Counted from the first letter of the stretch, positions 30,001-36,000 are shown. The stretch is 64,000 bases of DNA from Chlamydiia bacterium (GCA_044359535.1 JBIKLZ010000001.1:9163-73162), one strand, 5' to 3'. Numbers are program-made.

Positions 30001-33000
30001 AATAAGCTCTATACATTTATGCATACAAAAGGAAATGAGGCAGTTGCAGAACAACTTAAATCTGCTGTGGAAGGATCGATCACCTCACTTTCAGATAAAA
30101 ATTGCCCTGCAACGTTTTCTGGGGACTCTGGATATACAATAGACCCAAAAACAGGGCAGGTAGAGCTTGATGATAAAGGAAACCCTAAAGGAGAGCAAGT
30201 CTCTATTACTCAACCGGGTACAGATAGTAAAGGGAATCCAACTTTAGGGTCTATCGGGAACATGTGGAATAAAGCTGAGCCGGGAACCGATACATCAGGG
30301 GGGTCAACAACCCCTAAAACTCCTGATTCTTCGATTTTAAATGCCTTTCAAAGTGCCATGGGGACCTTAGGGCAAGCTGGAACGGCCTCTTCATCGACCT
30401 TGCAAGCCTTTATAAAAGTCTTAACCGATAATTTTACCGGTTCCCAAGGAAACTTAAACAATGCCCTCAATAAATCGATCTCGTTACTGACAGCAATGGT
30501 GAATAATTCTCGACCTGGAGGAGGTTAAGTCTTTGCTTATCTCTTTGATAATAAATGCGATAGCAAAAAAAGTCTTAATAATATCTTGATTTTTTAAGGA
30601 AAAACAGGTAAAATAAAGGTAGGGAAAAAGAACTTTAATAAAATAAGGATAAAAAAATGGATTTAGAAGATATACCTAATAATGATCAAAATAGTGTTTC
30701 TAATGAGATTGAAAGACAAAAGATTGAGGCAGAACTTAACGCTATCAATCACGATAGTGGGGGAAAAACGGTAGATCCAAAAAAGGGATTAGCTGCCGTT
30801 ATGACAGGATTAGATGCTGTAACTAAAGAGGCTTCTTCTAAAGAATCAGCCGGGCAGGGTTCAGCAACTGAGGATACTTCGAGTAACCCTTATGCAAGCG
30901 ATTCTGATTCTGATTCTGGTTCTTACTATGTAACAGATCCTTTGGTAGCCTCAATTCTTGCGGGGGTAACAAACCTTACTTCTAAAACAGAACTGATGAA
31001 AGCCACCTCTGATATGCAAGAAAAGCTCTCTGATTTAACAACAAAGGTAGCACAATCAGGACGTGATTGGATGCAAAACTTTTATCAATATGGACTTGTA
31101 GCTTCTGATGGTTCTGCATCAATGGGCTCTTATGATGCGGGCACCGCCCATAAGCCTGGAGATGTGTCTGTAGTGGATTTTAAAATTGCGAATGGAAAAA
31201 TTTCCATGAGTATTAATGGAGGGGTGACTTGGGAAACCCTAGGTCCAGATAGTTTAATTGAGGGGACACCTTCGGATACTTTAATAGCTGCAGCATTTCC
31301 TAACTATACCACAAGTGGATTGAATTCTGGCGAGCTTGCGTACTTATCACAACAATTTTATGATGCAGGGTTTAAAACAGCACAAGGTCCGGTTCAATTT
31401 CAAGGGATTCTTATAAATAATGGAACAACCGAAGGGGGGGGGACAGGTCTTCAAGCAGCATCTAGTGGAGATATGCAAGCTTTAATGAGTCAGTGGTCAT
31501 ATGTTCAACAAACTGCAAACAGTAATAATCAAACCATTCAAACAACCTCTAATTTACCTACAGCGATGCAATCAAACACAAACTCAGATATTGGTAATAG
31601 TACTCAAAGTCGGCAAGGTGTTGAAGGATGTTTGGATAGTACAGCAAATTTAATTACAGGTTGGACAAGGTAGGGGGTCTTTATGAGTGATAATTTAGGT
31701 ATAAACTCCGATGGAGTGAATAATAGTGTTCCTTCTCAAGATGTCGATTCTACAAAAAAATCTTTAAAAGGGGTCGATCCGAAAGTAGCCCATGCAGCCG
31801 TTGTTTCAGGGTTAGAAAACGCAATTGATACAGCACAGTCAGAAAGCAAGACTTCCCATGCAATGCCTGCCCTTATGGCAGTGATTGAGGCATCGCAAAA
31901 ATCTCAAGATGCAGGGAATGAAATTATTACAAGTCTCTCATCCATGGCAAATCAGATCGTGGAAGTGACCACAAAAGCCACTACTGAAGGGGTGCAGTGG
32001 GCCAATAACTACTATAATTATGGACTTTCTACCGCCCAATCTGACCCTTCACAAGGGATTGGTCAATGGTCTAAAGGGACAGATCTTCCGGCAGGACCGA
32101 TCACAGTAAATATGAAAATTGAGGGGGGAAACTACTACATGAGTATTGATGGGGGAAAAACCTACAAAAATATTGGGGCTATTATGCGTGGAGATGATGG
32201 ATTTGTAGCTCCCCCTCCTCAATCTGAAATTGATGCTGCCTTCCCTGGGTATACATGGCCTACAGATCCAAAACTTGTGAATGAAAATAAGGCAAGCACA
32301 TACTGGCATTCTGGAACAGGATGTCAGGGGGATGATCAAGTTTTCACAATGACTATTGAGGCTCCCGATAGAACCACAGGGGGGACAGGGATTGCTGGTG
32401 GAGCTCCTGATGACATGAATGATAAGTTAAATCAGTACTCTTATATACAAAATGTTAATAGTGAAGTAAATACTGCAAATCAAACCCTTTCAGCCCTTCC
32501 AGGGGCTCTTGAAAATACCATTGTCACTTCAATCAATCAAGGGAACAGCAATGCAAAAGATATCCTTAACGCCCAAGATCAGCTTGGGAATATGATACAA
32601 AACGCAGGGTAATTAAACAAGGGAGGAGGGGCTATGGGTGATGATAAAATACAAAGAGCAGATAACGTAGGTGAAGACGCTTACGTATATAACGACCTTG
32701 TTCAAGATGGGGTGGAAAAGAATAAAAAAAAGACAAACGCCCTTCTTTCGGGGTTAGAGCAGGTTGTGATGGGATCAATGGAAGAAAGTGAAGGGAAAAC
32801 GCCATCAAAAGCTCTAAAGCTCCTTCAAAAGGACCCAGTACAATTTGCCGATCTTTTCAAAAGTTCAAATAAAACCGATCAAGATGAGGCTTTTAAAGCT
32901 ATTGGAGCCTATGTAGCTTCTACAAAAGGGAGCGACACAAAAAATTTAAGGGTTATGCTACAAGAGCTGATCAAGGGGACCCCTCAAGAAAAGAAGGGGG

Positions 33001-36000
33001 CTGAATTTGTTAAAATTGCTGAAGAGATGTTTGATACATTTGCTAAAGGGGTGGATACAGGTCAGGTTTCTTTAGATGAGGCTTGTTGCTCCCAACAAAT
33101 TCAAGCATTTTCTTTAGAGCTGATGAATACAAAGCATGGGGAAACCTCTACAGGGATAAAAAATGCATTAACCTCCCTTTTTCAAGGGAAAAAGATTGAC
33201 GATGATTTTGTTGGAAAAGTGGTCGATCTTTCTGTTAAAGCCTCTGTGAGCAAGACAAAAGAAGGGGATGACATTATAAAAACCCTTACTTCAAATCAGG
33301 GTATAAAAGCGTTATATAATGCTAAAGGGGGGGATCCATCGATAGATTCATTGTCTAAAACAGTGCCTTCTTCAAATGTCGGTGGTTCCTATGTGAACGC
33401 AATGATGTCGCTAGCGGCAGCCTTAGTAGCCCTTTTAGCAAATGTGTGTAATGCAGAAACCTCAGCAAGTGATATTGGGTCAAAAATTTCTCAAAAGCAA
33501 GGGGAAAATGCTGAATCGATTGCAAAAAATAATATCAATGCCCTTCAAACTCAGTTGCAGGCTCAAGCCGATGCAAGCAAGCAACCTTGGTATATGTATT
33601 TAATTGCCGGTGTTTTAGCTCTTGCCGGTGCTGTGGCAACATTTTTTACAGCAGGAGCGGCCGGTGCTGCTGTTGCTTTAATCATTGGGGCAGTTATGGC
33701 TTCACCAGCTGGAAGTAGTATCACTGGAGGGTTATCAAAAGCCTTAGGGGGAGATAATGCCGGTCCTGGGGCTCAGGCGGGAGCCACTGCAATTGTTGCT
33801 GCAATCACAACCATTTTGAGCTTAGGGGCGGGAGGGTTTACTTCTGCAACAGAGGCAGCTGAAACAGGTCTTGAACAAGGGGTAGATGCTGCAGGGGATG
33901 CTGCAGGGGCAGCTGCTAAGGGTGGAGGACAAGTTGCTGAGGATGCAACAGCAGCAGCCCAGGTGGGTGATGAGGCAGCAGATGCTTCAGGAAATGAGGC
34001 TGAGGAGACGGTAAGCAAGATATCCAAACTTACTGAGAAAATTAAAAAGGGTTTTAATCAGAAGTGGGATAACGGAGCTTTTACAAAAGGGATTGTTAAG
34101 AGGGGAATAGGGACCTATCTTCAAGGGTTTTTAGGTACTGGGGGACTAACAGAGTCTGCTGAAGCAATTGCTACTGCTGTAAAGCCAGATATTCTTAATG
34201 ATAGTAACTGGGCTCTTGCCATTGCTATTACCGGGGCAGTCATCTCTTTTGCTGGAGGGCTTGTTTCTGCTACTAAATTAACGGGTGCTGGGGTTGAAGA
34301 AAGGGCTAACTATTTATCACAGAAAGATCTTGTGGATAGCATTTTAAAATATACAAAGCCAATAGAAGTATCTGTAAGGGTAATAGAGGCCTCTGGAGCT
34401 TTAGCTCAAGGGGGGCTTAATATTGACCAAGGGTTTCAAGAGATGCATGTCTCTGATTTACAAAGACAAACAGCGTTAACACAGTCTGCATTAGAAATGC
34501 AGAAATCTGTTCAACAACAGGCTTTAAATTCTAATAGCGATATAAATAAGGCCTACACAGATATGGTGGATAATGTAAATAAAGCTGTTAATGAGGCAGA
34601 AGGGGCCATTGGGGTAGAGGAGCAAAATACAAAAAAGGCAATTTCTAAATAGGAATAAATAATAATAGTTGAAAATCAATAATAAATATGTTATAATTAT
34701 ATTAGGGAATAATGTAGTTGTTATAAAAAAGGGGTAAAATATGTCTTCAACAAATCAAGTAAACGGGTCCGTTCAGCCAAATCCAAATGATCCAACACAA
34801 GGGGGATCAGATACTGTGGACAACAAAAAAATTGCAGCAAAGCTTCAAGGGATCTCTGCTGCTATGGGTTCAGTAAATGATCAAGGGACAACAGGGGGTC
34901 AAACTACTGGGGGGACTGAGAATGTATCGATCAACGGACAAGTGTACGTTATAGATTATATCCCATTTAAAGCCTTTTTAGAGCAGCTAAAACAGCGTCT
35001 TGAGCAGACGTTGACAAGTATTGATATTCAAAAGATGCAAGTAGCCTCATACATTGGAGACACAGTCAATCAAGATGGGTCGGTCTCTACATCAAGTAAT
35101 GGAGGGATTATGGGGCAAATTTGTGCAGCAATTATTGCTGGAGGGGATGCTCAAGCCCAACAAACAATGAATCAGTCGATACAGAGTTTATCTCAAGCAG
35201 GAACTCAAATTGCTGGAGGGATATTTGTTGAAGCTGCCCAAGGGAATTCTAAAAAAGAACAAGATACAGTAGACAAAACGCAAAATGCCATCGATGCGTT
35301 AGATAAAATTCCTGCTCAAGGAACTAAAGATCCAAATACTCAAACAAGAACAAACAATAATAACCAAACACTGTCTGATGAAGATAGTGAATCTCTAGAA
35401 AGTGCAATTAATGATTTAAAAAATGGAACATTGGATTTTTCTAAGGAAGACACAACATTTGGATCAAAGGTTGTGAAAGATCAAAAAAACAAAACTACAA
35501 TTCAAAAACAAACACAAGCCGAACTTGAGGGTGATCAAACTAAAGTCAATGGAGAAAACGACGACTCACCTACAGTATATGAGACATTGCTAAATTCAAC
35601 CCCAGAGGAAAAACAACAAATTAAAACGGCGCTGACAAAACAACTTAATAAGGCAAAAGATAAACTGGAAAAAAAACAAGAAACAAATAGAAATACAAGG
35701 GAGAGCTATCGAAGGATTGTTGAAGCTGCAGGAATGGCTACTGGGGGAGGGGTGACGATGCTTAATGCTGCAGCAACCAGAGAAAAAGCTAGCCAAGATG
35801 CCGCTCAAACTCAGGCTCAAAGTGTGGATTCTACTGCAAAATCAATGATGAGTACAAACGATGCAAGCACAACCGATAGACGAGCAGATATTAAGTCAAC
35901 CTTGGATGCTTTACAGTCTCTTATTGATGCAGTCAATAGAAGGACATAAGGTCGATTTAAAAAGGCGCTAGGGATGTTCCTGGCGCTTTTTTTTATGAAG

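Follow-up and report, generated by a model that had tools for sequence, protein, structure and literature searches.

A conserved N-proximal motif on the exported-type proteins of a chlamydial type III secretion operon and its putative role in docking

What does a short amino-acid string signify when it recurs near the N-terminus of neighbouring gene products beside a secretion system? The question is raised by a 64,000-nucleotide (nt) stretch of DNA from Chlamydiia bacterium (GCA_044359535.1, JBIKLZ010000001.1:9163-73162), hereafter the window. Near this chlamydia-like bacterium's type III secretion system (T3SS) gene cluster, a plus-strand operon at 28633-35949 encodes, in this order, p148, p122, p345, p338, p309, p672 and p402. 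According to the original prediction, the last four of these proteins share a 9-residue motif at the same N-proximal position and, being otherwise dissimilar, may thereby share a chaperone or sorting-platform docking signal. The four strings proved exact in sequence, residue numbering and nt coordinates: AVMTGLDAV occupies residues 47-55 of p338 (338 amino acids (aa), gene 30657-31673, string 30795-30821), AVVSGLENA residues 39-47 of p309 (309 aa, 31683-32612, string 31797-31823), ALLSGLEQV residues 36-44 of the SseC-like major-translocator candidate p672 (672 aa, 32634-34652, string 32739-32765) and AKLQGISAA residues 33-41 of p402 (402 aa, 34741-35949, string 34837-34863), all on the plus strand. 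Shine-Dalgarno-like sequences lie 5-10 nt 5' of all four ATG starts, so the residue numbering of the sites holds. The lysine-containing patch predicted ahead of each string (DPKK, DPKV, NKKKT and DNKK) was likewise confirmed. Basic patch and core together span residues 40-55 of p338 (DPKKGL and AAVMTGLDAV, 30774-30821), 32-47 of p309 (DPKVAH and AAVVSGLENA, 31776-31823), 29-44 of p672 (KNKKKT and NALLSGLEQV, 32718-32765) and 26-41 of p402 (VDNKKI and AAKLQGISAA, 34816-34863).

The description of the carriers as otherwise dissimilar stood in part. p338 and p309 are full-length paralogs (BLASTP 2e-21, 26% identity over ~320 residues), so their common motif is inherited, and speaking of four otherwise dissimilar proteins overstates their independence. 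Three independent families stand: A/B (p338 being A and p309 B), C (p672) and D (p402). C and D showed no similarity beyond the motif, and none was found between p338 and p345, the T-family protein encoded in the same operon (29491-30528, plus strand).

The strict 9-residue pattern matched four times, only in p338, p309, p672 and p402, among the 129 window open reading frames (ORFs) of at least 60 aa (26,325 residues), compared with a mean of 0.03 matches in residue-shuffled ORFs. Because this pattern was defined post hoc, we gave more weight to independent tests. A position-specific scoring matrix (PSSM) built from orthologs in other genomes only ranked the p338 site first (19.7) and the p672 site second (15.2) among all window ORF positions; the p402 site came sixth (6.8) and the p309 site fell under the listing threshold of 6. 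With a PSSM from the A/B family alone, the expected site was the best N-terminal match in 8/8 C and D proteins, and its scores exceeded those of 58-62 of 62 controls, which were the N-terminal regions of 62 non-operon proteins. When N-terminal 80-residue profiles of the three families were compared with hhalign, the motif in register was the sole or top local alignment in every pairing (P 0.0057 for A/B with C and 0.00025 for A/B with D). The major translocator (C) and the second translocator-operon protein (D) thus have one short motif in common, in register (P 0.0044).

Proteins of this operon are rare, with 3-5 clusters each among 5.8 billion. Further lineages were obtained by protein searches and contig look-ups, and T-family profile scans of genome contigs and of metagenome contigs each added one near-identical locus. 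For the window's genome, a relative with 98% identity is present on contig Ga0172367_10000040. Complete or partial syntenic operons were found in L001 (GCA_945897715.1), L006 (identical to L010), the single clade formed by L002, L012 and L014, L008 (partial), L015 (GCA_022599615.1) and the more distant lineages L017 and L018; every one of them sits between the cdsD-side cluster and clpX. These orthologs did not keep the exact 9-mer, its Gly being replaced by E, D, Q or V. What was kept, across six chlamydial lineages including the window, is a relaxed motif, K-K-x(1-3)-[AK]-[AV]-[LIV]-[LFY]-x-x-[LI]-x-x-[LVY], and a related segment is present in every A, B, C and D ortholog. In this relaxed form, no match of comparable strength occurred elsewhere among the window ORFs and the 62 controls.

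Among 25 instances, core position 2 was A (20) or V (5), position 3 L, I, V, M or K, position 4 L, Y, F, M or V (L in 15, Y and F in 4 each), position 7 L (19) or I (6) and position 10 L, V, Y or A, with Lys at position -3 in 14 and at position -2 in 16. Reliable start codons were available for 24 instances, drawn from the window, L001, L006, L008, L002, L012 and L014, and in every one of these the core began within residues 30-50. In the A/B alignment the motif was the best-conserved 9-column block of the first 130 columns, and in the C and D alignments it formed a clear island of conservation, preceded by a variable N-terminus and followed by low-complexity linkers, the flanks being unalignable or of low complexity.

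L015 was held out of PSSM training. Five of its operon proteins, namely those of families A, B, C and D and T', the extended T-family form described below, scored 10.7-22.1, whereas the maximum over the 62 controls was 4.9; the matches began at residues 32-39, placing the core at ~36-43. Motif-less T, the E family of the same operon, p148 and p122 scored within the control range. An exhaustive C-family profile search returned 43 proteins, and most of these distant homologs, ~16-30% identical to p672, carry a similar segment at residues ~25-50, for example KKADQVLLSEIEDLL, KKAAKALLTELEELL and DEALAASLQKLEELF. With a PSSM lacking any C-family sequence, the N-terminal site in 14 of 37 C homologs still beat at least 61 of the 62 controls.

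The motif segment also occurs on a body that is otherwise without it. An extra N-terminal extension of ~80 residues that contains the motif precedes a complete T-family body, similar to p345, in L015 and in the L002/L012/L014 clade, and we call this form T' (for L002:1237-2400, residues 81-381 align with p345 residues 5-337, BLASTP 3e-47). T in the window, L001 and L006 has neither the extension nor the motif. Because T' bears the motif extension and T of other lineages does not, the segment behaves as an add-on module, to judge from these sequences joined to different bodies via linkers of low complexity and variable length and not part of a fold. Just 5' of the T' gene, the N-terminal module recurs in truncated form (…NKKTKGNAALFSELSDYAAIV) in short ORFs of 57-70 aa (L002:998-1210 and L012:9750-9923), which resemble leftovers from the duplication or fusion by which the T body gained its module.

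These same observations bear on whether the likeness could be a functionless relic, left by common descent or by recombination of 5' gene segments between neighbours and helped by compositional chance. The paralogy of p338 and p309 would fit such a history, as would the T' extension, which probably arose by fusion with an A-family N-terminus; the duplicated module fragments 5' of T' indicate that recombination does occur in the region. A relic accords poorly with a motif that stays an island while its flanks have diverged beyond alignment, that persists where the bodies are only 16-47% identical, and that control proteins and shuffles fall far short of in score. We also rejected recent gene conversion as an origin of the four window copies, since their codons differ. 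Overall, we consider a relic very improbable.

The motif is a real, conserved feature, specific to the exported-type proteins of the operon; it, its position, its conservation, its restriction to these products and its portability are directly observed, and from them we infer the docking role of the helix and what it docks to. As the best explanation, which we advance tentatively, the sequences suggest a portable N-terminal targeting module, of which the motif forms the conserved core, on exported, translocator-class products of a chlamydial T3SS operon, with putative docking onto one receptor, most likely a shared secretion chaperone. The module would begin with a polar, variable N-terminus of ~25-30 residues, taken as a generic type III secretion signal, followed by the Lys-Lys patch, a short amphipathic helix ([AV]-[LIV]-[LFY]-x-x-[LI]-x-x-[LVY], hydrophobic at positions 2, 3, 4, 7 and 10) and a low-complexity Ser/Asp/Pro/Gly linker into the protein body. 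An AlphaFold2 model of p309 from a 4-sequence alignment is helical at residues 33-53, with low confidence (mean predicted local distance difference test score (pLDDT) 46). The helix would dock all module carriers on one common receptor, and we propose that they would therefore be handled as a single substrate class. If the receptor is a shared chaperone, the motif would take the role played by the P/VxLxxP 'molecular anchor' in the translocators of other systems.

As originally predicted, a shared docking signal is the best reading, because the relaxed motif is conserved, is absent from controls at comparable strength and is placed like a chaperone-binding domain; the parts of the prediction that did not hold are the literal 9-mer, the independence of two paralogs and the partners named, which are shaky. 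The placement claim itself stood: in class I and class II clients, the chaperone-binding domain directly follows the secretion signal (PMC13466201), and the motif follows a polar N-terminus of ~25-30 residues. There is also precedent for one short motif in the major and minor translocators that binds their common chaperone (PMC13466201, PMC4536800). The genes around the motif carriers provide further context, with small helical p148 and p122 at the start of the operon and, at its flank, a CesT-family protein and a 144-aa protein, p144.

p672 is the major-translocator candidate. Its hydrophobic segments (Kyte-Doolittle) lie at ~249-278, 317-367, 377-406 and 524-550, and the central pair (~317-367 and 377-406), which matches the SseC-like central transmembrane pair, is kept in all six orthologs. 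p672 alone gave no Pfam match at E <= 1. When the window protein and its family-profile matches were aligned, 9 of the 36 proteins matched Pfam SseC (PF04888; best 5.1e-9), and two SseC-matching relatives scanned singly reached 20.1 and 18.4 bits, under the gathering score of 30.2. When the seven operon proteins and the small proteins beside the operon were scanned with Pfam and NCBIfam, the motif carriers gave sub-threshold noise only. The nearest named relative of p672 is a protein of a 'Chlamydiia bacterium' metagenome-assembled genome (MAG). p402 sits at the position expected for a second translocator and has no hydrophobic segment in any of the six lineages; in L017 and L018, the gene 3' of the translocator looks different from p402 and has hydrophobic stretches.

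Which protein might act as the chaperone? The first of three predicted candidates, at 27704-28114 (minus strand, 136 aa), belongs to the CesT family of class I type T3SS chaperones (PF05932; E 4.6e-9 and 36.9 bits, the cut-off being 22; model positions 2-119 of 119), and a similar gene of 134-136 aa adjoins cdsD in L006, L012, L014, L015 and L017. The second, at 28666-29448, resolved into two plus-strand genes that are both candidate small chaperones, p148 (28633-29079), the first operon gene with a likely start at ATG 28666, and p122 (29080-29448), the second, helical and 55-65% identical. The AlphaFold2 model of p148 (pLDDT 74) is a three-helix bundle, and the C-terminal tail of the protein is basic; Foldseek against the PDB gave generic helical bundles only, all at E > 0.07, and identified no chaperone family. 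We also considered p148 and p122 as paralogs of which either would suffice, and found this unsupported (hhalign probability 4.7%). The third, at 24860-25312 (minus strand), is a CdsG-family tetratricopeptide repeat (TPR)-like protein, of the needle-subunit co-chaperone family (NF052304; E 1.8e-42, 144.7 bits, under the equivalog cut-off of 170), and the gene order cdsD, DUF5398/YscE-like, 81-aa protein, 24860-25312, ..., cdsN fits the placement of CdsG. The divergently transcribed p144 (28135-28569, minus strand) is 51-60% identical across lineages and present in all five aligned lineages (window, L001, L006, L012 and L014), with similar genes in L015 and L017; of the small proteins next to the operon, p144 and the CesT-family protein recur most consistently across lineages. 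Sequence profiles of the A/B, T, p148, p144 and p122 families matched nothing meaningful in the PDB.

p144 shows further features of its own. A basic tail and the invariant ...WLKS (WMKS or WMRS in L017) make up its C-terminal end; it is far more conserved than the secreted proteins, and has no Pfam or PDB match. Strongly basic tails recur in the small flanking proteins at 28135-28569 (minus strand), 28633-29079 (plus strand), L017:7294-7734 and L017:8125-8559.

Several of these results weigh against a shared chaperone as the receptor. No single candidate stands out. The protein at 24860-25312 falls to the needle-subunit co-chaperone family, and neither gene within 28666-29448 is found in every motif-bearing lineage: p148 is absent from L015, and p122 from L012 and L014, although the motif is present there. 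The CesT-family protein is a doubtful partner for the motif carriers, as its position beside cdsD is what we take to be that of Scc4, the chaperone of CopN (the chlamydial secretion gatekeeper), in Chlamydia. A class II (LcrH/SycD-type) chaperone gene was not found in the operon, and Pfam and NCBIfam scans of the operon and flanking small proteins revealed no TPR chaperone, leaving the CdsG-family protein as the only TPR-like protein of the region. In L017 and L018, the motif occurs only in the translocator and one small A/B-like protein. Within genomes the motif copies vary together to some degree, as expected of co-evolution with one partner: all four window proteins have Gly at core position 6, and the B, C and D proteins of the L002 clade have it at position 8. 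The exact permutation fraction (0.06) is suggestive and not significant. Finally, the motif persists in translocator homologs only ~16% identical, which could point to a receptor in the core apparatus rather than a dedicated chaperone.

Such a receptor could be the export gate. In this alternative, the helix would bind, independently of chaperones, a conserved component of the machine, for example CdsV, the gatekeeper complex of CopN or CdsU (SctU/FlhB C-terminal domain), and so set a substrate's place in the secretion hierarchy. The motif would then correspond, in an injectisome, to the gate recognition motif (GRM) of flagella. Persistence of the motif at such low identity fits a slowly evolving receptor, the core never starts before residue 30 (range 30-50), and its h-h-x-x-h pattern (LLSGL, LFTGL, LLSEI) resembles FlgD 36-FLTLL-40, a GRM resemblance confined to a short hydrophobic pattern. 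The motif is also carried by non-hydrophobic proteins, which should need no translocator chaperone, and no one small chaperone gene co-occurs with it everywhere. PMC11925242 cites multiple export signals that chaperones or gate proteins recognize, a translocator-specific one among them; in the surveyed T3SS literature, injectisome substrates have no established gate-docking motif defined by sequence. Two proteins fit gate docking poorly, as p345 (T), presumably exported, is without the motif in three lineages and the E-family protein of the same operon is without it too, and cdsU, cdsV and copN lie outside the window. Taken together, gate docking is possible but unlikely, and we are similarly doubtful that the motif is a chaperone-independent, GRM-like substrate-class signal that a conserved component of the export gate or gatekeeper would read without an intermediary.

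A role after secretion was also weighed, in which basic patch and amphipathic helix would act outside the bacterium, as a coiled-coil or assembly interface of tip, filament or translocon subunits or as a membrane-binding helix. Basic-plus-amphipathic helices are typical membrane- or partner-binding elements, and all carriers, as products of one operon, are candidates for a single extracellular assembly. p309 residues 39-85 gave a weak match to the Hrp pilus subunit family HrpE_Xanth (E 0.012) that, at 16 bits, is far under the cut-off of 90. The string also resembles the N-terminal motif A-x-[ST]-G-L-[ND]-A (AVSGLNAA type) of flagellar axial proteins, a likeness that proved unsupported: Flg_bb_rod gave no match at E <= 1, and there is no ANNLAN-type continuation. 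Hydrophobic moments of the motif segment are modest (0.11-0.55), linkers of variable length and low complexity part the motif from each body, and its presence on T' and absence from the same body in T are unlike a core assembly interface. A post-secretion role thus appears improbable.

A docking module, tentatively for a shared chaperone, is the reading with which we turn to the remaining features of the families and the locus. A/B members in distant lineages are just 137-171 aa long (L017:9544-9957, L018:8743-9258 and L018:9301-9795) and retain a W..N[FY]Y.[YH]G segment and a C-terminal ...GW end. The central part of p309 (residues ~138-227) is beta-rich in the AlphaFold2 model (pLDDT ~70) and, because the distant members are short yet retain the conserved segments, appears to be a domain inserted in a two-helix, filament- or needle-like scaffold. 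The motif-less E family (453-915 aa) is encoded by a large gene between the D gene and clpX in every other lineage (L001:8613-10133, L006:16993-18354, L002:7332-10037 and L015:13828-15336); the window is without it, and 44 nt separate the end of p402 from clpX (35949-35993). The MAG records L009 and L010, which contain the operon, are labelled 'Chlamydia trachomatis isolate MiH-...', probably a mis-assignment; close relatives of the translocator-operon proteins are limited to a handful of environmental contigs.

The minus-strand T3SS cluster extends over 13210-27586, with a CdsC-like secretin, a Pkn5-like kinase, a CdsQ-like FliN-domain protein, a YscO-like protein, the T3SS ATPase, the CdsG-family protein, a DUF5398/YscE-like protein and FHA-domain CdsD; the 81-aa protein occupies the position of the needle subunit. 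Within it, 19041-27586 is annotated as the cdsD-E-F-G-...-N-O-P-Q operon (minus strand). Besides its Ser/Thr kinase domain, the kinase at the Pkn5 position (17466-19040, minus strand) shows a weak C-terminal match of SpoIIE/PP2C phosphatase type (E 8.7e-5, just under the cut-off). The mechanically called CdsQ-like ORF (19041-20345, minus strand, TTG start) overlaps the upstream 194-aa ORF (20260-20844, minus strand) by 86 nt, and the real start of the CdsQ-like protein is probably further downstream than this TTG. On the 3' side of the plus-strand operon follow clpX, clpP, tig, a SNF2 helicase gene, mreB and pckA. The window carries two ClpP genes (2896-3498 and 37215-37832) and two large SNF2-family helicase genes (4964-8638 and 39431-42901).

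Type III secretion signals are notoriously hard to spot from sequence, and how translocators are recognized in systems without the P/VxLxxP anchor is an open question. The motif offers a concrete peptide for probing the receptor, be it chaperone or export gate, and, for chlamydiae, which are hard to work with genetically, a mutational handle on the secretion hierarchy. Infection by C. pneumoniae was blocked by a chaperone-binding peptide of CopB (PMC4536800). The scoring matrix can be used over chlamydial genomes to nominate further substrates. Should the motif turn out to be read by the gate, it would be the first sequence-defined sorting signal for injectisome 'middle' (tip and translocon) substrates, which would become predictable from sequence across Chlamydiota.

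Among known systems, the P/VxLxxP anchor is the class II (TPR) chaperone-binding motif of the translocators IpaB/IpaC, YopB/YopD and PopB/PopD (PMC13466201). Bulir et al. described PELPKP in C. pneumoniae CopB, with the anchor also in CopD (PMC4536800), and a review notes the anchor as missing from some systems, including Chlamydia (PMC13466201). Like the anchor, for which a single chaperone handles several clients (PMC13466201, PMC4536800), the present motif is short, lies N-terminal to the hydrophobic region and is common to otherwise unrelated proteins of a translocator operon. Unlike that Pro-flanked extended hexapeptide, it combines a Lys patch with an amphipathic helix and occurs on up to five proteins per operon, including non-hydrophobic ones. 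P/VxLxxP itself was not found in six C and six D proteins, save one C-terminal VTLSKP, and occurred at chance in the C superfamily (4 of 37 proteins compared with 3.6 expected from shuffles).

In flagella, the GRM of rod and hook subunits (FlgD 36-FLTLL-40) docks them at FlhB-C (PMC8983047). Both are short hydrophobic motifs common to a whole class of exported subunits, and the start of the core at residues 30-50 agrees with the position rule for a GRM. The GRM consensus F-x-x-x-hydrophobic and the core h-h-x-x-[LI] are similar, not identical, and Phe is not the key residue here; the motif also differs in belonging to an injectisome and another substrate class, in its preceding Lys-Lys patch and in the chaperone candidates encoded nearby.

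For clients of class IB (Spa15/InvB type) chaperones, Costa et al. in 2012 reportedly described a conserved chaperone-binding domain, [LMIF]xxx[IV]xx[IV]xN. That motif, too, is N-proximal, within the first ~50 residues, and marks several substrates of one multi-cargo chaperone; its clients are effectors, whereas the carriers here are translocator-operon products, and this pattern was not found in the first 120 residues of the 25 motif-bearing proteins.

Small helical chaperones of the SseA and CesAB type serve several 'middle substrate' clients in the SPI-2 (Salmonella pathogenicity island 2) and LEE (locus of enterocyte effacement) systems, and CesA binds coiled-coil regions of EspA and is not known to bind a short N-proximal motif. 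As in those systems, one or more small helical proteins come first in the operon here; proteins resembling filament or tip components are next, then the SseC-like translocator and one more secreted protein. p148 and p122, however, give no sequence or fold match to SseA or CesAB. The CesA-EspA pair is described in PMC13466201. Judged by its sequence, the motif is best filed under a known kind, the short N-proximal docking motif common to several T3SS substrates, in what appears to be a new sequence form.

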